This document shows, one piece after another, positions 2,236 through 47,649 of a DNA stretch of 64,000 bases. A model generated the notes under the pieces. It was not told where the DNA came from. It was given only the letters and a program-made list of their open reading frames with translations, and did no database searches. Each line of letters begins with the position of its first letter. The first letter of the stretch is position 1. Source of the DNA: a virus (Duplodnaviria > Heunggongvirae > Uroviricota > Caudoviricetes); IMG/VR virus record IMGVR_UViG_2721755710_000007, positions 11,410 to 75,409 of that record, one strand, 5' to 3'. Both the position numbers and the translations under genes were made by a program.

Positions 2236-2599
2236 AATTATGCCTCACTGTATTGACAACACAGAGCCTGAAGCTCTGACCTACTGTTTCACCCATGATC
2301 CATGCTGGGGTAATCTAACAACATTGCGCTGTGTGTAAGATGAGCAATGCGGTGATGCTGCCAACTTACTGATTTAGTGTATGATGGTGTTTTTGAGGTG
2401 CTCCAGTGGCTTCTGTTTCTATCAGCTGTCCCTCCTGTTCAGCTACTGACGGGGTGGTGCGTAACGGCAAAAGCACCGCCGGACATCAGCGCTATCTCTG
2501 CTCTCACTGCCGTAAAACATGGCAACTGCAGTTCACTTACACCGCTTCTCAACCCGGTACGCACCAGAAAATCATTGATATGGCCATGAATGGCGTTGG

Positions 2600-4052
<1,453 letters not shown>

Positions 4053-8553: not shown

Positions 8554-9243
8554 TCATAAATCTGATAGCCACTTACTATCTATGGACTCAATCTCCGTCA
8601 GCGGAATTGATGGGAAAAAATATCCCTGAGCGCCCCATAGCCCTATCCCTTTTGATAACTTATGACAATCAATGTTTTCGACGCCTTCAGCGATGATATT
8701 CGGACATAACTTTTTTAAATTGCTAATAATGACATCAAAATGAGGCTTAATCATATGCTCTTGAAAAAATGACTTATCAAGTTTTATTGCATGATATTTA
8801 TTTTTAATTAATGCTTTCATGGTGGCGTTACCACTTCCAAAATCATCAAGCCAAACATTATCTGTCAAAGTCAGTAGAAAGGATATGACGTAATCCTCAT
8901 CGCTTAAATCAGGATAGTTTTCTGATATCTCAATCGCTATAAATTTATTGTTTATTAGTAGTTCTTGAATTTGTTTATTGCCATATATATATAAACAGGT
9001 ATCATAATCTACATTGATAGAGCATAATATATTATGGCATTCAAAAAAACACTTATATTTGATTATTGTGTTAAGTTGAGATTTTAGCAAGTTAATCTTC
9101 ATCTTGCTTGTAAATATACCTAATACTTTCTGAGTAGAAAGAATAGCCCCCTCGTTGGAATAAAATCTGCTCAACACTTCCACTGCTATCAACTTGTTAG
9201 TGCTTGTGGAAATGATTGGTTCTACTATGTAGATAACTTCCAT
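8554..9243 (-). CDS. EAL-domain protein (c-di-GMP phosphodiesterase-like, possibly degenerate)
   Basis: 229 aa with EVLSRF, EISE, DDFGSG, KLDKSF, EGVE, QGY motifs; AT-rich. Confidence 0.6.
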   Translation of the reverse strand: MEVIYIVEPIISTSTNKLIAVEVLSRFYSNEGAILSTQKVLGIFTSKMKINLLKSQLNTIIKYKCFFECHNILCSINVDYDTCLYIYGNKQIQELLINNKFIAIEISENYPDLSDEDYVISFLLTLTDNVWLDDFGSGNATMKALIKNKYHAIKLDKSFFQEHMIKPHFDVIISNLKKLCPNIIAEGVENIDCHKLSKGIGLWGAQGYFFPSIPLTEIESIDSKWLSDL

Positions 9244-10955: not shown

Positions 10956-12887
10956 TTATGCGTATTGTTGGATGACGGCCAGAACGTCCGCCACGTTGTG
11001 TTTTGTCTCGATAATCCACCAGTTGCCCGGGAAATCGCTGTTCTTCGCCTTCGCTGGCAGCCAGCGAGCGCCGAATTTTTCCTTGATTGCGTCTTTAGCA
11101 CGGAAAAGAACGCCTTTCATGCCGGACGCCTCCTGAAGCCCAAATACCTCACCAGCGGCGAATTTTGGTGCGTACATCATCTTCAGGTCGGCGGTGGATA
11201 CGCGATAATTCAGACCAAGAGACTGAGCTATGCTGGTGGCATCACCCTGTATTGATGATAACTCTTCTTGTTTCTCGTTTCTGGCGGCAATTTCTTCCTC
11301 CGTGATGTTGCCTAGGGCCAGGTTTATCCGATCAGCGTCGGCCTGTTTCTCTTCATCGGTGCGCCCGGCAAGAACCGTGTTAATTCTCTGCAATATCTCA
11401 ACATGATTCTTGCGCATGCTAAGCAATTCCGGCGTAACCTCGTTAAGGTCCACCAGCCCAAGGATGGCAAGGTCGGAAAACATTGATACCAGGTTGTAGG
11501 TCATGCGATAGCTGAGTTGCCCATAGGCTGATGGCAACTGCACCGCATCCATTTGATAGGCATCCATAAATTTAGAGCCGTCGTTTACGACATCCGCAAT
11601 TGCCGGTGTGATTTTCCCTGTGGTGGCGGCCTCCCTGATTGCTGTTACCCACGATTGAGTCAGCGCGGCGACTGCATGATTCAGATTGGCTTTCCGTTCT
11701 GCTGCAATACGCGCGCTTGCAGCGTCCATTGCCTGCTTGATCTCGTCTTTATTGCTGTAAATGCCAATGGTGCCAAACTGTGCTGTGGTGATCTCATAAT
11801 CTGACGCCCGGAACTCATGGGTACCGAAAATGGCATTGGTGACCTCAAGTTCAGAATCCCCGTTACGAGTAGCCCCCTGGCTTGTTTTCTCCGGCATTCT
11901 GGCGATCGCATCCGCTATTGTCTCCTGAATTGCTTCAGGGGATAGCGTATCTCCGTATGACGCGATTACTTCGCCATAATTGGAGCCAAACAGTTCAGTC
12001 AGGAATACTTCTGCCAAACGGACCTGGCGGTTATTCCCTTCCGACATCATACCAAGCACCCATTTTGCAATTGACGACTTCAGCGCGCCGTCACGGCGAT
12101 CCGGGTAAACCGCATGCTTCAGTGGGTCCGTATAGGTACCAACAAAATCAATGCTATAGCCTGACTCTGTAGTCTGAACGCCGTATGAGTCAGTGATTTT
12201 GATCATGCCGCGCTGCTGGAAACGGTAGAAATCGTCACAGGAAATGATGTCGTTAATCCCGGCGATGGAGACGCCACCACTGATTTTCTGCATAACAGCA
12301 TCTTCATCGGGAGTTACATCCACCTGTTTATCCAGCGTCTTCACATCCCAGTTACCCGATTTGGTGCCTTTGAAGGTAAAGATGATCTCCACGTCTGCGC
12401 GCTGGCTGTCGAAGTCCAGCGACTTAATGCGAACGATATCACCGGCACAATCGTAGTATTGGCCTACACGCCATGAGCGATCGCCGATAACAAGGAACTC
12501 ATTCGCATGGTTAACCAGATCAGGATCAACATCCAGAATGCCTTTATTTATTGCATCCTCCACCAGCGGGCGCAGGCGTTTGATATCCGTCGCGGCCTTC
12601 TGAGTACGGTTCAATAATTTCTCATAGCGGGAGATGGCTTGAGTGATATTAGCCTTGCGCTGAATGGCGCTTTTCAACGACGCGCGATAATGTGCTAACA
12701 ACGTACGGTCTGTGTGATGGACGCTACCCCAGCGGGCCTTCCAGTCTGCATTATCAGCTGCTTTGGCCATTAACTGGAGTGCCATCAGTACCAAGAACAG
12801 GAGCACCTCCCACGCTAATAGACTGGCCCCCTGAATCTCACCGTTCTGAAACCACAACAAAAAAACATCAGGAATAAAAAACACCAC
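10956..12887 (-). CDS. hypothetical large protein (up to 643 aa), first gene of operon; true start probably internal (Met codon at 12785 or 12770)
   Basis: Long ORF; codons 17-23 are encoded by an IS2 IRL remnant so the annotated N-terminus is doubtful; no Walker or methyltransferase motifs seen. Confidence 0.5.
   Translation of the reverse strand: MVFFIPDVFLLWFQNGEIQGASLLAWEVLLFLVLMALQLMAKAADNADWKARWGSVHHTDRTLLAHYRASLKSAIQRKANITQAISRYEKLLNRTQKAATDIKRLRPLVEDAINKGILDVDPDLVNHANEFLVIGDRSWRVGQYYDCAGDIVRIKSLDFDSQRADVEIIFTFKGTKSGNWDVKTLDKQVDVTPDEDAVMQKISGGVSIAGINDIISCDDFYRFQQRGMIKITDSYGVQTTESGYSIDFVGTYTDPLKHAVYPDRRDGALKSSIAKWVLGMMSEGNNRQVRLAEVFLTELFGSNYGEVIASYGDTLSPEAIQETIADAIARMPEKTSQGATRNGDSELEVTNAIFGTHEFRASDYEITTAQFGTIGIYSNKDEIKQAMDAASARIAAERKANLNHAVAALTQSWVTAIREAATTGKITPAIADVVNDGSKFMDAYQMDAVQLPSAYGQLSYRMTYNLVSMFSDLAILGLVDLNEVTPELLSMRKNHVEILQRINTVLAGRTDEEKQADADRINLALGNITEEEIAARNEKQEELSSIQGDATSIAQSLGLNYRVSTADLKMMYAPKFAAGEVFGLQEASGMKGVLFRAKDAIKEKFGARWLPAKAKNSDFPGNWWIIETKHNVADVLAVIQQYA
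12819..12839 (+). mobile_element. 21-bp IS2 left inverted repeat remnant
   Basis: TAGACTGGCCCCCTGAATCTC identical to the IRL of the intact IS2 at 19645; similarity stops after 21 bp. Confidence 0.6.
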
Positions 12888-13385
12888 ACAAACACAGCAC
12901 TGTACCCCCCCTCATAACTGAAAAGCGCCGCCGCCCCCGCCCGAAGGGCGGGAACAACATCGCTTTTAATTATGAATGTTGTAAGTACATTGTCATCGCT
13001 GTCAGTCTTCTGGCTGGAAGTCCTCAGTACACGCTCGTAAGCGGCCCTCACGGCCCGCTAACGCGGAGATACGCCCCGACTTCGGGTAAACCCTCGTCGG
13101 GACCACTCCGACCGCGCATAAAGGCTCTGTCATGGCTGAAAACGGGTATGGCTTAGCAGGGCCGGGGGTGGGTAAGGTGAAATCTATCAGTCAGTACCGG
13201 CTTACGCCGGGCTTCGGCGGTTTTACTCCGGTATCATATGAAACAACAGAGTGCCGCCTTCCATGCCGCTGGCGCGGCATCAGGACAACTGAAGAGTGAC
13301 GGCGCACATTAACATCAAACAGACTTGTTAAGCAGTCTTTCAGGGTGTAATCTGAAGACCTGTTAAATAGTCTCAGAGGTGTGTT

Positions 13386-13637
13386 ATGCCCAGTATCATT
13401 TTGTCTGACACCAGTGCAAGCGTCAGTGAGCTGAAAAAAAATCCGATGGCAACTGTCAGTGCCGGAGAGGGGTATCCTGTTGCCATTCTTAACCGGAATC
13501 AGCCAGCATTCTACTGTGTCCCTGCTGAGCTCTATGAAAGAATGCTTGATGCCTTGGATGACCAGGAGCTGGTAAAACTGGTTACTGAACGCAGCAGTCA
13601 GCCTCTGCATGATGTGGACCTGGACAGTTATTTATGA
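13386..13637 (+). CDS. stbD: StbD/RelB-like antitoxin
   Basis: 83-aa ORF overlapping the toxin start by 4 bp. Confidence 0.75.
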   Translation: MPSIILSDTSASVSELKKNPMATVSAGEGYPVAILNRNQPAFYCVPAELYERMLDALDDQELVKLVTERSSQPLHDVDLDSYL

Positions 13638-13921
13638 CTTATACAGTAAAATTCCGGGATGATGCACTGAAAGAATGGCTCAGACTGGACAAGACCATTC
13701 AGCAGCAGTTCGCAAAAAAACTGAAAAAATGCAGTGAAAATCCTCATATAGCTTCTGCAAAACTACGTGGATTAAAGGACTGCTATAAAATCAAACTTCG
13801 CGCATCAGGTTTTCGTCTGGTTTATCAGGTTATTGATGATATGTTAATTATTGCGGTCGTCGCAGTAGGTAAACGTGAACGCAGCAACGTTTATCATCTC
13901 GCCAGTGAACGGATGAAATAA
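13634..13921 (+). CDS. stbE: RelE/StbE-family toxin (mRNA interferase)
   Basis: 95 aa; ...LRGLKDCYKIKLRASGFRLVYQVIDD...VGKRERSNVY closely resembles recalled E. coli RelE. Confidence 0.8.
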   Translation: MTYTVKFRDDALKEWLRLDKTIQQQFAKKLKKCSENPHIASAKLRGLKDCYKIKLRASGFRLVYQVIDDMLIIAVVAVGKRERSNVYHLASERMK

Positions 13922-14780
13922 TATCCTGGTCAGCACTCTTTCTTACCTGCTTCCATTTTTTCAGTGATTCTTTTCCTGCATGCAGAAAAAAAGCCTACCC
14001 TGTGGGCAGGCATAACAGACAATCGCACAGTCAGTGTTGAAATTAATGATGTCACGCATTATACCCGGTGGATACACAAACCATCCCTGCAAATGCATTG
14101 GCATCCTAATCAACGTCTGAAACAACTGCAATGGCCGGATCTGTGATTTCAGAGAAAGTTATTATGTTTATTGAATATAACCGAAGTGATAAATAAAAGT
14201 ATTATCACCTTTAATATTTATGCTTATTGCGTGGTTTTATCTGGTTATATAAAGCACAGATGTTCTTATTATTTTCTGAAAAATAACCATATGGATCGAT
14301 TTCCCCCACCCAGCCGAAGCGGTTCGGCTCGTTCGGCGTGTCGTCGACACTGAAGCGCTTATCCATTTCGTTCCAGCGGTAAGAGTTGTCGCTGTCGCTG
14401 ACGAATGCCATCGGGTCGCTAAACAGCGTGATCCGCCATGCGATCAAAAAGCGTAAGTGTTTCCGACAGACGAGCCGGTGAAAAAAGTGGTGTGTCTGGC
14501 AATACAGGCATCGTCCCCGAAATGGACGATGCCGTTGAAGGACTGGGGTATGGCAATAAGCCGCTTTATTATCGGATTCAGTGACCGCCTGGACGGTTAC
14601 TTTTGAGAAAAGGCATTTACACACAATCCTAAACAGACTCCTATATTTCAGATTTTGTTATCAACGCATTTCAAATCTCTTAGAAATCATTACTGTCGTC
14701 ATATTTTCCGAGGCAGCTCACCACCTAACTATGTTTTATCAACAATATTTTGTGAAGGATATTTATAATGTAAAGACACA

Positions 14781-17700
14781 TCAGAAACGATATTCCACAC
14801 TCAACATGGCAGATGTATTATGGTATCCATGTTCTCCAAGTTGAATGCCTGCATCAGCCCGGAATGCTACTTCTGGTGTTATCATTCCCACAACACCACC
14901 ATTTATTTCTCCGATATCACGCGCACCATCCTGGTATATACTTACACCATTCATACTGGTGCCGAAAACACGACTATTGTGCAACCAGTGTGCCTCCACA
15001 AATGGTCTGAACGGAACCGCATACCGCGTATTTTTACCGTTTTTGCTGGTAAGCCATGTTCTTGCTCCCAGGCGGGTGAGAATATTTCCGTTACCGGTAT
15101 TTTCAATACTGGTTCCGTTACTTTCATGATATTTGTCTGATTTTACATTCATCCGGACAACCTGAAGCTGCGGCTGAACATACCATTCATGACTTCCCTT
15201 GTAATTGTCGGTAAACTCTCCAGCCTTCCATGAATATCCTGCTTCCAGAGATACCGTAAACCCTTTTGACTTCCATGACTCAGCAGGCAGCCGTTCTCCA
15301 TTTATATGATTATCAAACCAGCTGTATTGCAGCCAGCTATCAAGATAAGAACCATTGTGTGTTTCATCATTGGCATACCATGTTGCATAAAGACCCGCTG
15401 TGTATCCATTCATTCTTCCTTCCGAATGGTATCCGGTGCTCAGGGCATTCGTACTGTTATTATTATGACCATAGCCAGCCATCATACCTGTATGCCAGCG
15501 ATCGGTACCATTCAGGCTCCACTGAGCTATATCTCCCCCTATTAACACAACGTAGCTATTCCCCCGGGTTCTCAGCTGACTACTGTTGTCACGCCAGCGA
15601 TTATGTTTTCCTTTATTATACATCCAGATACCTGCTTCATTTTCTTCTCCTGTCATGTGGCTGATATACAACTCCTGTCCCTGTCGTTCATACAGATTCG
15701 TTACAAACAGATTATTTGCAGCAGCAATACTGGCAACATAGCTACCTGCCTCAGGACGCAAATTATTATCATGGTTTTCCGGTACAGCTTCAGGTTGTGG
15801 TACAGGAATGTCTTTTCTGCTAATCAGATACCAGTTAGTGCTGTTAATCCCCTGACCACGTTTCAGTATGTAATCATAAGCTCCGGCTGTAATACGTTCC
15901 GTCTGAATGAATTCAGCATTATCAGCATTGCCACTGACGTGAATCACTTCAATCCCATTAAGTGTCTCTGCACCAGTACCACCGGCCTGAGTAACAGCGA
16001 CACGGGTACGGCCACTGGCATTACCTTTAATCACCAGACGATCTGTTTTCGAATTGTCACCACCTGTTTCTGTCTGGAGGAGAATAAGTCCATTTCTGCC
16101 AGTGTAATTCCCTCCGACAGTCAGTATATTACCCGGCATATATGTAGTGAGATCGACTATACCACTATTGCTCAGATTTCCTGCAACGCCCCCAAACCCG
16201 GAGAGTTTGCCCTGCTCTTCAACAATGACCTGGTTACTGCCGAGCATCACCGGTGAATCTGCGTTCCCCAGTATCACTGTCCCCTGAATAATATCTGTCA
16301 TCCCGGTCCATTTTGCGTTATCGCTAATGTTCAGTGCACCTGCTCCCGTCTTGCGAACATTACCATAACCACTGATATTGTTGGTAAGCTGCCATGCTGA
16401 TGTACTGTTCAGAGTTAATGTGCCATAGTTATCAACAAAGGCTGTCCCCAGATTATCAGCCGTGGATACAGCCAAATGAGCCCCCTTATTCACGGTAAAA
16501 ACACCGGAAAAATTACGATTATTACCCGTTATATCAAGCATTCCCCCATTTATGTTCAGAGAACCATCCCCTGCAATAGTACCTGCAGATTCTCCTCCAT
16601 TATTCAGTATCAGGCTTCCGCCATGAATGTTCAGCACAGAGCCTGCAGCCGTCAGTAGTTTGCTTATTGTCTGAGGATACCCATTCATATCCAGTTCTGC
16701 GCCACGGGATAAATATAAATACTCAGTCCGACCAAGAGCATCAGGTGCAGCAAGAATTAATACGCCAGATTTAACCTCTGTATTTCCTGTATAATTGTTT
16801 GTTGCAGAAAGTATAAGAGTACCATTACCTGATTTTGTCAGACTTTTGCCGTCCCAGCCATCATATAATAAAGGTGAAAGATTATCGGAAAGAGAAACAC
16901 CTATGTTCAGAGTGGCATCTTTTTCTATATTAAAGGTTCCATATCCCATGCCTTTTGTATTATTCCATCTCAGCATGGAGATCAGTTTGTTATCGTCGTC
17001 ATTTAAAGACGTATAAACATAACTTTCAGCACCTTCTGTCAGTAATACATTGTATTGTACAATGTGACTATTATCAGCGATCGAGATACCTGTGTCTGAC
17101 GACAATAATGTGTAATAGTCCTGAGTCCAGTTCTTAATTGATGTGTCTATATTAAGCCATGAATCACTTTTTAATGTAATAGTATTTGCGTGAACATTAG
17201 CATTTCCTACAGACAGGTTCATAGATGCGTCTTCATCAATACTTATATTTCCGTTAAAAATGGAGTTCTTGCCTGACAGATAAACAGATGAGCCATTCCC
17301 AATCATTAGCCCACCATTAATTGCTGTTGCGTTATTGATGTTTTTAATAATTAATTCATTTGTACCATTAACAGGTATACTAGCTAGTTTAATATCACCA
17401 TTAATCACAGAATCTGAATAAATATCTAATGAATTATACCCGCCAGAAAAAATTATTGATGTATTATAAGCATCTTTTTGGCTATTATATAATCCTGAAA
17501 GATTACCATGATTATTAATATGGATATCTTCTCCATAAACAGAGCAACCACCGTCGGGGCCATATCCCCCCTGAACAATACCGTTATTATTCAAAGTGAT
17601 TTGATTTCCAGAAATAGCATCTCCCCCTTGTTTTATTCCATATCCTCCAGATATCATGTTGTCGTTAGTAATGAAAAGATTACTACCATTAATACCATCA

Positions 17701-18278
17701 CCACCGTTTACGCCATTACCGCCCAATATTCCTCCGGAATTATGCACTGTAATATTGCTACCGGTTACACCGGAACCACCTGTCCCACCTACATCATCAC
17801 CTCCGTATATACTTCTGTAATTATCAACTATAATATCATCCCCGCTTAACCCTGCACCTCCGCTACTTCCTGAGCCACCAAGACCATTACCCCCATATAC
17901 ATTTCTGTAATTGTTTATAGATATTTTGTTGCCACTAACAGCAATTCCACCATTATATCCATCTCCTCCCCAAACACTACCATTATTATTTAGCGTAAAG
18001 TTTTCACCGTAGACACCTGCACCACCGATTGATGTATTGCTTGTTCCTCCTTTGATGTTAATACTGCTTTCAACAGATAGTATATTTTGAGTATAACTTG
18101 TTTTATACGGCACGCTGATATTAAGCGCCGCGTTTCCATCAACACCTGTAATACTCCTGGTTATACTTTTAGGTATACCATTACCATTCAGTTGTATTGT
18201 TTGCGCACCAGAAAAATGAGACTGCACAGAATAAATTATACTGACCAGAAATTGTAAAATTCGTATATTCTTATTCAT
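14781..18278 (-). CDS. autotransporter adhesin (AIDA-I/TibA/Ag43-like)
   Basis: 1165 aa; signal peptide, glycine-rich ~19-aa passenger repeats, C-terminal beta-barrel ending ...SVEYRF; AT-rich. Confidence 0.75.
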   Translation of the reverse strand: MNKNIRILQFLVSIIYSVQSHFSGAQTIQLNGNGIPKSITRSITGVDGNAALNISVPYKTSYTQNILSVESSINIKGGTSNTSIGGAGVYGENFTLNNNGSVWGGDGYNGGIAVSGNKISINNYRNVYGGNGLGGSGSSGGAGLSGDDIIVDNYRSIYGGDDVGGTGGSGVTGSNITVHNSGGILGGNGVNGGDGINGSNLFITNDNMISGGYGIKQGGDAISGNQITLNNNGIVQGGYGPDGGCSVYGEDIHINNHGNLSGLYNSQKDAYNTSIIFSGGYNSLDIYSDSVINGDIKLASIPVNGTNELIIKNINNATAINGGLMIGNGSSVYLSGKNSIFNGNISIDEDASMNLSVGNANVHANTITLKSDSWLNIDTSIKNWTQDYYTLLSSDTGISIADNSHIVQYNVLLTEGAESYVYTSLNDDDNKLISMLRWNNTKGMGYGTFNIEKDATLNIGVSLSDNLSPLLYDGWDGKSLTKSGNGTLILSATNNYTGNTEVKSGVLILAAPDALGRTEYLYLSRGAELDMNGYPQTISKLLTAAGSVLNIHGGSLILNNGGESAGTIAGDGSLNINGGMLDITGNNRNFSGVFTVNKGAHLAVSTADNLGTAFVDNYGTLTLNSTSAWQLTNNISGYGNVRKTGAGALNISDNAKWTGMTDIIQGTVILGNADSPVMLGSNQVIVEEQGKLSGFGGVAGNLSNSGIVDLTTYMPGNILTVGGNYTGRNGLILLQTETGGDNSKTDRLVIKGNASGRTRVAVTQAGGTGAETLNGIEVIHVSGNADNAEFIQTERITAGAYDYILKRGQGINSTNWYLISRKDIPVPQPEAVPENHDNNLRPEAGSYVASIAAANNLFVTNLYERQGQELYISHMTGEENEAGIWMYNKGKHNRWRDNSSQLRTRGNSYVVLIGGDIAQWSLNGTDRWHTGMMAGYGHNNNSTNALSTGYHSEGRMNGYTAGLYATWYANDETHNGSYLDSWLQYSWFDNHINGERLPAESWKSKGFTVSLEAGYSWKAGEFTDNYKGSHEWYVQPQLQVVRMNVKSDKYHESNGTSIENTGNGNILTRLGARTWLTSKNGKNTRYAVPFRPFVEAHWLHNSRVFGTSMNGVSIYQDGARDIGEINGGVVGMITPEVAFRADAGIQLGEHGYHNTSAMLSVEYRF

Positions 18279-42715: not shown

Positions 42716-43010
42716 TATTAGATGTGTGCTGGAGGGATGATGCAGGACCAGAATGTGCGAGAGAGGGAAGTCGCATTGAATTATGTGCTGTGGAGGGATC
42801 GCTGGTATCAAATATGTGTGCTGGAGGGAAAGGCAGAGAATTACATGTGCACTGGAGGGAAAAACGGATGGACAGATGTGTGCTGGAGGGAAAGTCTGGG
42901 CAAACTGCGGGGCGTCCCCCTCCAGCGCACATCAAAAACAGGAAATTGGACAAGCCTTCCCGGCAGCACACATTTTTTTAATGCAGCTTCCCTCCAGCAC
43001 ACACTTATTC
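42716..43010. repeat. incA iteron array
   Basis: About nine copies of GATGTGTGCTGGAGGGAAA-like 19-mers in both orientations. Confidence 0.8.
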
Positions 43011-43865
43011 TGGGAGTTTCAGCTTTGGATTGCGAGAATGGACGATTACAAAACTTTCCCGGCCTTTCTTCTCAATTGAACAGTCGAGATAGCCGATTGT
43101 TTTAAGCTGTTCTATCGCTTTCTTAATGATACGGTTTTGCTCGCCAACAGCTGACTGCAAAGCCAGGCGCTCACGGATTCGGGCGAAAGATAGCGGCAAC
43201 GGATTCTGCGGAAGGCTTTCGATGAAAGTGTAAATGGCTTGTGCAGCTTCTTTCTTCGGAAGGGCACGCAAGGCGTGGTGTTGCAACAGAACGCGATAAT
43301 CAAGCTGGAACAGCTCCCACAGCTTCGAATCAGCCTCCAGCTCTATCAGATCAAGGTCAGCATCAAAACGACCGACCTTTAGCAGACCAGTCTGATAGCC
43401 GCCTTTAGCATCTTTTCCGCGCTTAAAAGCGATACCCTTGTTACGTAAGCGTCCAAGTGATTCATGAATGGTTAAACGCAGTTTCGCATCCAGACGTTTT
43501 GAGGGGAAACCACAGGCTTTAGCGAATTCCTGAAACGATAACTGGATGGTGTTTGAGGACAAGCCGTATTTGCTGAACGCGTAGATGACACCGATCCACG
43601 TTTTGAAATCAGTATCCATATCGAGTCGAGGACCGGTGATTTTAATATCATCGTAACCCTCGGCTTTAGCTATCTCCAGCTGGGAAAACGCTTTGGTGGC
43701 ATCAATCTCTTTACTTTCTCCTTTGCTCTTTGATGGCTTCGGCACGAATACCCCCAAGCGCATCAACGCTACAGGCTGCACAGTGTTGTTTGAATTAACT
43801 GTTAGTTCTTTTGCCTTACTTTCAATGTCTGCGTAAAGAATATCGGAGATAAATGATTGATTCAT
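43005..43865 (-). CDS. repA: RepA plasmid replication initiator
   Basis: 286 aa starting MNQSFISDILYADIES, matching recalled P1 RepA; flanked by iteron arrays. Confidence 0.9.
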   Translation of the reverse strand: MNQSFISDILYADIESKAKELTVNSNNTVQPVALMRLGVFVPKPSKSKGESKEIDATKAFSQLEIAKAEGYDDIKITGPRLDMDTDFKTWIGVIYAFSKYGLSSNTIQLSFQEFAKACGFPSKRLDAKLRLTIHESLGRLRNKGIAFKRGKDAKGGYQTGLLKVGRFDADLDLIELEADSKLWELFQLDYRVLLQHHALRALPKKEAAQAIYTFIESLPQNPLPLSFARIRERLALQSAVGEQNRIIKKAIEQLKTIGYLDCSIEKKGRESFVIVHSRNPKLKLPE

Positions 43866-46466: not shown

Positions 46467-46751
46467 ATGCAGATGGAGCTAATAAGCCGCAAAGAGTTCG
46501 ATAGCCGTGTAACCAGCGGTGAACTCGACAACTTGCAGGCTATCAAGGTGAAAGAAGGCTTTTGCCTCATTGGGAATCAGAGCGGAACAAATCGCGTTTT
46601 TATGCTTCGCCGTACGGATTTGAAGCCATTTGTCTGGAAGAACGAAATTGGTCCCAGCTCATACGCTCAAACGAGGGGGTGCCACAACCTGGCCTTTTTC
46701 TACAAAGACGAGCTTTCTGTGGTTGATATTCAAGGGTTACAACATGTTTAA
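46467..46751 (+). CDS. hypothetical protein upstream of hrdC
   Basis: ORF from [11 protein letters not shown]; stop overlaps hrdC start. Confidence 0.4.
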
Positions 46752-47649
46752 GCACTGGAAAAACATTACTATTTATAAACTTTCTCGTGAGGCGGATCTG
46801 ACCGACTTAGAAGATAAAAAGAAAATGATCCTTTTCACGCCATGCGGTAGTCAGGATATGGCCAAGTTCGGTTTTGTATCTCCATTTGGTGATAATTCCG
46901 AAGTTATCGCTATGCATGGAAATGGTTTTATCCTTGTTGAAGCAAAGCGCGAAACAAAAATTCTTCCCCCGCCGGTTATCCAGCGAGCTATTCAAGAAAA
47001 AATTGAAAAACTTGAGCAAGAACAAGCGTGTAAACTGAAGAAAACAGAGAAGGACTCCCTGAAAGACGAAGTTCTGCATTCTCTTCTGCCACGGGCTTTT
47101 TCAAAGTTTTCTGTTATCCAGGCGATCTACGACGGTTCAACTAAACGTATCTATATCAATGCCAGCGCGCGGCAGGCAGAGGATATGCTCGCGCTTATGC
47201 GTAAGTCTCTGGGTTCTCTTCCTGTTGTTCCCCTGAGTGTTGAAAATCCCATTGAATTAACGCTGACCGACTGGGTACGTGATGGTAGTGCTCCACAGGG
47301 ATTTCAAATGGGGGATGCGGCAGAACTTAAGGCAGTGCTTGAGGATGGCGGTATTGCCCGAGTGAAAAAGCAGGATTTGGGAAGCGATGAAATTTCCACA
47401 CACCTGGAAGCTGGCAAGCTCGTCACTAAGTTGGCACTCGACTGGCAGAACCGCATTAAATTTACACTGGACCATAACTTCAGCCTTACCAGCGTCAAAT
47501 TTGCGGATGAATTGCTTGAGCAGAACTCTGATATTGATAGTGAAGATGTAGCGCAGCGACTGGACGCAGATTTCTTCCTGTTGACCAGTGAAATTTCGTG
47601 CCTGGTTGATGCTCTGGTAAATGCCCTTGGTGGAGAGGCTAAGCAGTGA
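46744..47649 (+). CDS. hrdC: RdgC-like recombination-associated protein
   Basis: [19 protein letters not shown]...[11 protein letters not shown]...[23 protein letters not shown] closely resembles recalled E. coli RdgC. Confidence 0.8.

Follow-up and report, generated by a model that had tools for sequence, protein, structure and literature searches.

An orphaned 'repA4 region' of an IncFII/I-complex-type plasmid replicon beside the stbDE toxin–antitoxin genes

The hairpin-dense, non-coding DNA directly upstream of the stbDE toxin–antitoxin (TA) genes is an orphaned 'repA4 region', the part of an IncFII or I-complex plasmid that adjoins the origin, and is not itself an origin. In our assessment, positions 12802–13280 of the 64,000-nucleotide stretch that we analysed (the window) are very probably the origin-distal tail of an IncFII/I-complex-type replicon that was cut from repA and the minimal origin and has persisted beside stbDE in a mosaic Rep_3-type plasmid. 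This kind of element is already known, and the fragment comes from among the best-studied plasmid replication regions.

Results

The block is the downstream part of a plasmid replicon

A first reading of the DNA, made from its letters alone (the sequence-only reading), had marked 12890–13385 as a region with no convincing gene, many inverted repeats and a composition sharply different from its flanks. No convincing gene was found in 12890–13280: the open reading frames (ORFs) overlapping 12890–13385 encode 78, 55, 43 and 30 amino acids (aa), apart from a 139-aa ORF on the minus strand, which crosses stbD in antisense and reaches the region with its tail, and neither the 55-aa ORF, the 78-aa ORF nor the stretch called RepA4 by the PGAP annotation had a match in Pfam/NCBIfam. 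The G+C content is 0.575–0.595 at 12900–13299 compared with 0.49–0.50 to the left and 0.39–0.46 to the right, a real but moderate step, so that 'sharply' somewhat overstated it. Both inverted repeats that had been quoted lie where they were placed (GCGGCCCTCACGGCCCGC at 13041–13058 and CCGGCTTACGCCGGGCTTCGGCGG at 13197–13220), and the density of hairpins is above chance. When folded as single-stranded DNA and compared with dinucleotide-preserving shuffles, 12900–13290 is more stable than expected on both strands (minus strand, z = −3.52, with 0 of 100 shuffles as stable; plus strand, z = −2.31). The limits needed revision at both ends: the block starts about 90 bp further left, at around 12802, and the final 105 bp (13281–13385) are a separate, putative stbDE promoter/operator region.

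12802–13280, plus strand: replicon-homologous block ('repA4 region', located immediately downstream of the minimal origin in IncFII R1/R100-type and IncK/I-complex plasmids), from blastn

Using blastn, we found that the block matches the IncK replicon L003 (1445–1921) over 480 bp at 92.3% identity, and that 12905–13280 matches the IncFII replicon L002 (1332–1707) over 376 bp at 92.6%. The match with plasmid pL2 (L008, 1239–2356) extends over 1121 bp (12803–13920) at 90.4% and includes stbDE. Window 12802–13920 is collinear with the intact-replicon segment at 90–93% identity, and it is the sole match when three whole replicons are compared with the window by blastn. In records that start at repA, the match lies at 1331–1707 in IncFII (repA 1–858) and at 1445/1491–1921 in IncK-type replicons (repA 46–1077). 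In pL2, an IncFII-family repA (1–873) and a DnaA box (1049–1057) precede the block, which is followed by stbD and stbE, and the gene table of pEntH10407 gives the order repA1, repA4, stbD, stbE (PMC2762410). The fixed place of the homology and the gene order in these two plasmids indicate that the window holds the downstream part of such a replicon and its TA module, in agreement with the earlier suggestion of plasmid-derived DNA carried with that module. Judged by homology, the block thus belongs to the origin-downstream region of the IncFII/I-complex family.

The resemblance extends to both branches of the family. The repA4/ter/leading-strand-start region of the IncFII plasmids R1 and R100 (NR1) shows the conserved hairpin, the Ter site and modules a and b (described below) in the order found in the window, whereas the window has no repA1, copA or oriR upstream. 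A TA module also lies downstream in IncFII, namely pemIK after an intervening gene in p2947-NDM5, compared with stbDE directly in the window and pL2. The leftmost part of the block, including the A/C-rich tract at 12850–12900, is matched best by the origin-downstream region of the I-complex (IncK, IncB/O and IncI1); the similarity to IncK stops at 13280 with no stbDE, whereas the window continues into stbDE. Megablast with 12850–13400 matched 6357 records, with the block present in 4078 of 5426 complete Escherichia coli genomes and 7507 of its 7566 places in them on plasmids. It is also present in at least 5000 PLSDB plasmids from Escherichia, Klebsiella, Salmonella and Shigella, and the allele of the window occurs at 99% identity or more in 176 E. 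coli records.

The stretch could also be read as a truncated protein-coding gene, repA4. In an identical plasmid, PGAP labels the equivalent of 12905–13156 'replication-associated protein RepA4', as an incomplete pseudogene, and R100-type plasmids and pEntH10407 (PMC2762410) carry annotated RepA4 ORFs. However, neither this frame nor the local ORFs tested match Pfam/NCBIfam, and the annotation of intact replicons is inconsistent (mostly nothing, with overlapping and differently bounded 'hypothetical' ORFs of 46 aa and 55 aa in two). Moreover, homologues carry 1- and 2-nt indels within the frame, and conservation tracks base-pairing, not codons. A repA4 gene is therefore very improbable.

repA and the minimal origin are missing

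12773–12802, no strand: left junction, about 30 bp between the end of helicase/methylase-type similarity and the start of replicon homology, from the limits of record matches

Records H128 and H129 match window 12700–12772 only, replicon-type records start at 12802/12803, and the match of record H72 begins at 12771, beyond which its upstream DNA is different. Inspection of three intact replicons placed the DnaA box TTATCCACA and the origin within about 190–200 bp to the left of the homology start (DnaA box at L002 1034, L003 1244 and L008 1049). IncK also has, in this origin stretch left of the homology start, four AANCNGCAA repeats, so that a DnaA box and RepA-site repeats stand directly upstream of its copy of the block (L003 1244–1315); in the window, by contrast, that place is filled by the 5′ end of a minus-strand helicase/methylase-type gene, which is a pseudogene in identical plasmids. 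We found no DnaA box TTATCCACA in window 12000–13600, and tblastn with three proteins, the RepA of IncFII, IncK and pL2, gave no match anywhere in the 64-kb window. With no RepA homologue in the window, the block counts as an orphaned piece of this family and falls short of full membership.

The same conclusion emerged from comparison with other species. When one genome per species was searched with a 17-mer from module a, 120 stretches were obtained, of which 58 are true homologues, from Erwinia, Pantoea, Mixta, Yersinia pestis, Klebsiella, Citrobacter, Kluyvera, Enterobacter and others. In 32 of these 58 loci, the end of a same-strand IncFII/I-complex repA is 586–797 bp upstream of the anchor, and the window, with no RepA homologue, departs from this rule of about 0.6–0.8 kb. 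At least 15 of the 58, each with more than 1.1 kb of upstream sequence, had no IncFII-type repA detectable with three RepA queries, which suggests that the module of the block may also serve in other contexts.

These observations bear on the earlier suggestion of an origin, which holds in that the DNA adjoins one and carries its Ter site and priming hairpins, but fails in that the components of a functional IncFII-type oriR (the DnaA box, the RepA-binding and A+T-rich regions and a cognate repA) are missing from the window. In intact replicons the homology boundary leaves the DnaA box, the RepA-binding sequences and the A+T-rich unwinding region on its left, and with these and repA absent, the tail could not fire as an origin. 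An origin that is autonomous, or fired in trans by the RepA of a co-resident IncFII plasmid, would fit the descent of the DNA from an origin region and the fact that carrier strains often also hold intact IncFII replicons (for example, EF7-18-58; H71 and H112). Set against this are the missing sequences and the preference of IncFII-family RepA for acting in cis, and we regard a functional origin as hardly tenable.

A conjugative transfer origin (oriT), also proposed from the sequence, fares worse still. Hairpin-rich non-coding plasmid DNA is what might be expected of one, but wherever a homologue has a detectable repA, a fixed distance separates that gene from the block downstream, and the block has no relaxase gene next to it. 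In addition, a search with the F-type consensus found no nick-site match in or near the region, with two matches at two mismatches elsewhere, fewer than chance expects. We give this reading almost no weight.

A terminator-like hairpin and an altered Ter site

12921–12967, no strand: conserved G+C-rich hairpin between AAAA and TTTT, from an inverted-repeat search and folding
12974–12987, plus strand: Tus-binding-type Ter site GAATGTTGTAAGTA, counterpart of R1 terRR with a C-to-G change at core position 17, from the consensus and aligned replicons

The A/C-rich tract at 12850–12900 is common to the window, IncK and pL2. At the position of this tract, R1-type replicons have an inverted Ter (L002 1265–1278, minus strand), which is absent from the window and from the IncK and pL2 lineage. 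The hairpin at 12921–12967 resembles a two-way terminator and sits between the two Ter sites in R1-type replicons. On the plus strand, the stretch 12912–12975 has a DNA fold of −15.8 kcal/mol (z = −3.79), and in the alignment the stem varies on both sides between lineages (CCCGCCC/GGGCGGG, CCGGCCC/GGGCCGG and CCCGGCC/GGCCGGG).

All four intact replicons checked (L002, L003, L007 and L008) have GAATGTTGTAACTA at the place aligned with 12974–12987, a full fit to the consensus GNRNGTTGTAAYKA. The window copy retains 13 of the 14 consensus positions, including G6 and the GTTGTAA core, and fails at Y only; with G at Y it falls outside the Ter core consensus, and no site that fits the full consensus was found anywhere in the 64-kb window. 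Compared with the E. coli Tus/Ter barrier, the window has G at position 17 where the consensus has C/T, inside the conserved core of positions 6 and 8–18 (PMC10331603). R1 has two ter sites between oriR and the leading-strand start, of which one halts the leftward fork at once and the other halts the fork after it has circled the plasmid (PMC10331603). The window site is placed as these are, between origin and leading-strand start, and represents the second, the one that stops the circled fork, in altered form. To judge from the core substitution, Ter function has probably been lost in the window. The description 'decaying remnant' applies to the Ter site only, modules a and b being essentially undamaged.

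The hairpins are conserved and covary across genera

We aligned 52 sequences, adding the pairs of hairpins b2 and b3 by hand. Of the cells, 91.8% are paired, compared with 31–48% when partners are slid by one to three columns. Fourteen pairs change on both sides, giving 58 such cells against 13.2 ± 3.0 in shuffles (0 of 500 shuffles reach 58); relatedness among the sequences makes the shuffle control overstate significance, a weakness from which the slid-partner control is free. The covariation of the hairpins extends over 51 homologues from other Enterobacterales. Strand choice could be sought in G–T versus A–C mismatches, but these are mixed in the pair table and were not used; the asymmetry in folding energy is clear for module a only.

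13029–13118, minus strand: module a, near-invariant Y-shaped fold of about 90 nt, candidate second single-strand initiation (ssi) signal, from the RNAalifold consensus
13032–13034 with 13114–13116, minus strand: closing helix of module a, from RNAalifold
13036–13063, minus strand: hairpin a1, core GCGGCCC..GGCCCGC, from RNAalifold
13064–13110, minus strand: hairpin a2, CGGAG..CCCGAC..GTCGGG..CTCCG, from RNAalifold

The consensus structure of module a was obtained with RNAalifold on the 52 sequences, across which the module is nearly invariant, the 17-mer anchor being so by construction. Its helices 1–6 are 96.6–100% paired, with two-sided changes at four pairs, and variants of the a2 stem still pair (CCCGAC/GTCGGG versus CCCGGC/GCCGGG). 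The copy in the window is identical to that of IncFII. Strand bias is pronounced: in every one of 47 distinct homologues, the minus strand folds more stably (mean −24.7 versus −19.0 kcal/mol for the plus strand), and window 13020–13125 gives z = −3.30 on the minus strand versus −1.27 on the plus strand. The spacer between the two modules is less conserved and unstructured, and its strand bias is opposite to that of module a.

Reportedly, a second ssi signal was found in an R1 derivative by Bahk et al. in 1988; pSY343 derives from R1. Module a, which is even more conserved than module b, is probably this second signal. We did not assign it as a mapped G site because no conserved CTG was found 3′ of it on the minus strand; CAGTAC precedes it in the R1/IncK lineage only. 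Two short likenesses on the plus strand were also set aside. A 9-mer, CGGAGATAC, common to the plus strand of module a and the viral strand of phage G4 can be attributed to chance (about 0.4 occurrences expected by rough arithmetic) and lies on the wrong strand for rightward leading-strand priming. The hexamer AAGCGG (13038–13043) resembles the n′/PriA-site hexamer, but six letters are too weak for us to claim a PriA site.

Alternatively, module a could be a distinct strand-specific element of single-stranded DNA, such as a site recognized by a protein or a portable signal for priming or restart, that also works outside IncFII replicons. In favour of a distinct element are the near-invariance of a Y-shaped fold of about 85–90 nt from Escherichia to Erwinia, Pantoea and Yersinia plasmids, the greater stability of the minus strand in every homologue, and the lack of an Rfam family and, as far as checked, of an assigned function. 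Action outside IncFII replicons is suggested by the 15 or more repA-less loci and by the recurrence of the module next to TA modules. We hold this to be unlikely, although it deserves some weight.

13188–13280, minus strand: module b, candidate G4-type primase signal ('G site'), from the minus-strand fold
13280–13263, minus strand: hairpin b3, ATGCCGC..GCGGCAT, from the fold
13258–13254 with 13220–13216, minus strand: closing stem of hairpin b2, from the fold
13210–13197, minus strand: hairpin b1, CCGGC-GTAA-GCCGG, from the fold
After b1, minus strand: unpaired TACTGACTG, with CTG at 13194–13192 and 13190–13188, from the fold

The minus strand of 13287–13183 folds into three stem–loops (b3, b2 and b1) followed by unpaired TACTG (z = −2.65 for 13183–13287). 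The complementary-strand origin of phage G4 (oric; L004 3886–4005), folded likewise, gives three stem–loops followed by unpaired CTACTG, where the record marks the primer start. Module b is thus predicted to have the G4-type layout of three template-strand stem–loops with a CTG a few bases 3′ of stem–loop I. In this model the primer would start opposite T13193 and synthesis would proceed rightwards, making the minus strand the template, and the predicted primer would share its first letters, AGUA, with the G4 primer. The two folds are unlike in the lengths of their stems and the sizes of their loops. In a blastn search in distant mode against 50,697 phage records, only chance-level matches of 27–32 nt were obtained, none of them G4-like, and the comparison with G4 therefore rests on the layout of the fold, not on sequence.

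Across genera, b2 covaries (GGCGCC/GGCGCC versus GGTGCC/GGCACC), as does b3 (ATGCCGC/GCGGCAT versus ATGCGC/GCGCAT versus ATGACGC/GCGTCAT). The CTG beside b1 is not universal, with TTG or other bases at the aligned place in some homologues, and the strand bias is slight (minus strand more stable in 32 of 50). Masai and Arai in 1989 reportedly placed the start of the R1/R100 leading strand at a 'G site', similar to the G4 complementary-strand origin and about 400 bp downstream of oriR, where primase alone lays the primer. Window position 13193 corresponds to L002 1620, and the DnaA box begins 586 bp away, at L002 1034. If the 188-bp minimal oriR of R1 begins at the DnaA box, the predicted start would lie 399 bp beyond its right end. 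From this distance and the geometry, we suggest with moderate confidence that module b is the G site.

Conserved, covarying structure might also be sought in a structured non-coding RNA (ncRNA), as the sequence-only reading had proposed, or in a long structured 5′ leader that regulates stbDE. The block stands directly upstream of stbD, and on the plus strand the hairpin CGCCGGGCTTCGGCG, with GTTTTACT after it, scores like a terminator. However, a covariance-model search of window 11500–15000 on both strands gave no Rfam match at E ≤ 1, and a promoter scan found no consensus promoter for the block. Elsewhere the block precedes unrelated genes (a CPBP-family gene then pemIK, IS91 or hypothetical genes), which ties it to repA and the origin, not to stbDE. 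Furthermore, the strand on which module a folds more stably in all 47 homologues, the minus strand, is antisense to stbDE. An ncRNA or leader is improbable, and signals in single-stranded DNA explain the conserved structure better.

The stbDE genes and their plasmid

13281–13385, plus strand: putative stbDE promoter/operator region, from repeats and conservation with pL2
13321–13338 and 13356–13373, plus strand: 18-bp palindromic repeats AGACTTGTTAAGCAGTCT and AGACCTGTTAAATAGTCT, respectively, from a repeat search
13375–13379, plus strand: Shine–Dalgarno-like AGAGG, with the stbD ATG at 13386
13386–13637, plus strand: stbD, Phd/YefM-type antitoxin, from the ORF, a weak sub-threshold YafN match and RefSeq annotation of identical plasmids
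13634–13921, plus strand: stbE, RelE-type toxin, from the ORF, NCBIfam TIGR02385 (RelE_StbE) and RefSeq annotation of identical plasmids

The region 13281–13385 has a G+C content of 0.42 and no excess folding (z of about −1.0 and −0.35), and it is conserved with pL2 but not with IncK or the IncFII plasmid p2947, in which similarity stops at 13280. Type II antitoxin operons are usually autoregulated, from which we infer an operator role for the region. A consensus scan found no stbDE promoter site in it; reading by hand suggests a possible promoter with TTGTTA (13325–13330) and TGTAAT (13346–13351) separated by a short spacer.

Elsewhere the window encodes a Rep_3 initiator (43005–43865), a DnaB-like helicase (53559–54929) and RdgC (46630–47649), and an identical plasmid has ref and mat pseudogenes, a set that we take to suggest a P1-like phage-plasmid backbone. 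Given this different, Rep_3-type initiator and the absence of an IncFII-type repA, the fragment is not the replicon of its host molecule. In identical plasmids the locus lies among insertion sequence (IS) elements and pseudogenes.

Discussion

Replication of R1 and R100 is unidirectional, away from repA, with RepA and DnaA loading DnaB at oriR. In the intact replicon, as we picture it, RepA and DnaA would open the origin at the left and DnaB would unwind the DNA rightwards, while the Ter/Tus site between the origin and the leading-strand start (two sites in R1-type replicons) would restrict replication to one direction. The displaced minus strand would fold into the hairpin signals, at which DnaG primase would lay the first leading-strand primer; module b would be the primase site, with the G4 layout of three hairpins plus CTG, where the R1 G site is reported. 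In the window, repA and the origin would have been lost by recombination and the addictive TA pair kept with the DNA attached to it. The block is thus most likely a passenger retained by linkage to this module, acting at most as a passive priming signal when the minus strand is exposed.

A continued passive or cis-acting role in priming is thinkable because modules a and b are intact. On a stronger reading, selection keeps the orphan block because it is still used, either as an ssi signal in cis for complementary-strand or restart synthesis or as a stability determinant together with stbDE. The identity of module a with its IncFII counterpart, the recurrence of one allele in 176 E. coli records and the 15 or more other-species loci with no IncFII-type repA upstream would accord with use; in one of these, L024 from Enterobacter asburiae, ORF translations place the module again directly upstream of a TA-like pair. 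The repA4 region contains the ter sites and is required for stable maintenance, and insertions in it destabilize pEC958 (PMC4398462). By contrast, recent spread alone predicts high identity within E. coli, the repA-less loci were screened with three RepA queries only, and the Ter core substitution and the neighbourhood filled with pseudogenes and IS elements argue against continued use. General priming by DnaB and DnaG, furthermore, makes a dedicated ssi dispensable away from its origin. We judge selection for use to be a minor possibility, and retention as a passenger remains our preferred explanation.

Labels such as origin, RepA4 gene or unknown ncRNA should be avoided when the block is annotated, and replicon-typing and origin-finding tools could mistake such a fragment for evidence of an IncF or IncK replicon. 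The multi-genus alignment of 52 sequences gives covariation support to the classical priming-region hairpins of R1 and R100, a region that no curated Rfam model matches. With about 480 bp at 90–93% identity to most IncF and I-complex plasmids of E. coli, the block is a ready substrate for homologous recombination and cointegrate formation with co-resident plasmids, and it provides an example of a TA pair preserving adjacent non-coding DNA after the deletion of its replicon.

Replicon of the molecule and genes around the fragment

Three genes of the window lie away from the fragment:

43005-43865, minus strand: Rep_3-family initiator, 286 aa
46630-47649, plus strand: RdgC
53559-54929, plus strand: DnaB-like helicase

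Together with the ref and mat pseudogenes carried by an identical plasmid, these genes suggest a P1-like phage-plasmid backbone, and the molecule's own replicon is therefore unrelated to the IncFII fragment.

The genes around the fragment and the neighbouring stbDE toxin–antitoxin pair are as follows:

8554-9243, minus strand: EAL-domain (cyclic-di-GMP phosphodiesterase-like) protein, 229 aa, a few kilobases left of the fragment
10956-12887, minus strand: helicase-related/DEAD-box gene (elsewhere annotated 'N-6 DNA methylase'), adjoining the fragment
14781-18278, minus strand: autotransporter (beta-barrel outer-membrane protein), 1165 aa, just beyond stbDE

The helicase-related gene encodes 1296 aa in plasmid NZ_CP104527 and reaches upstream to about position 8835 in related plasmids; the window copy appears to be missing approximately 2.1 kb internally. 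In an identical plasmid the annotation gives it as a frameshifted pseudogene, and the remaining 643-aa open reading frame has no Pfam or NCBIfam match. The EAL-domain protein scores under the NCBIfam family cut-offs. On the other side of the fragment, the autotransporter gene is bordered by pseudogene fragments (alkaline phosphatase and IS3) in identical plasmids.

In the intact IncFII (L002, about 1708-1716) and IncK (L003, about 1922-1930) replicons, b3, the last hairpin of the module, is followed by ATATCCTGG, in place of which the window has CATCAGGAC. ATCCTG within ATATCCTGG resembles the IncP/Q-type nick-site core, a likeness that is probably coincidental.

Copies of the hairpin module on other records

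The hairpin module was also found on chromosomal records, namely a Pantoea stewartii chromosome (L040) and a 4.8-Mb Erwinia tracheiphila contig (L013 and L026). In two of these three copies the match to repA is no more than partial, covering 70 and 146 aa, and all three are probably integrated or decayed plasmids.

Two further copies lie on an 8.2-kb Streptomyces morookaense contig (contig146; L022) and a 2-kb contig of a Lachnospiraceae metagenome-assembled genome (L086). In an ungapped comparison with the window, the left (40 nt) and right (60 nt) flanks of the 17-mer anchor were 97% and 93% identical, respectively, for L022, and 88% and 92% for L086; in L022, an IncFII-family repA lies upstream of the module. 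Because assemblies from unrelated phyla should not carry such sequence, both matches most likely represent contaminating enterobacterial plasmid DNA.

A further copy without repA occurs in the region 2282-3303 of a 3,686-bp Enterobacter asburiae contig (L024), with transposase and resolvase fragments upstream. Judged solely from the translations, the gene pair directly after this module (115 and 93 aa) looks like a toxin and an HTH antitoxin, an arrangement that follows the same remnant pattern of replicon tail plus toxin–antitoxin pair as in the window.
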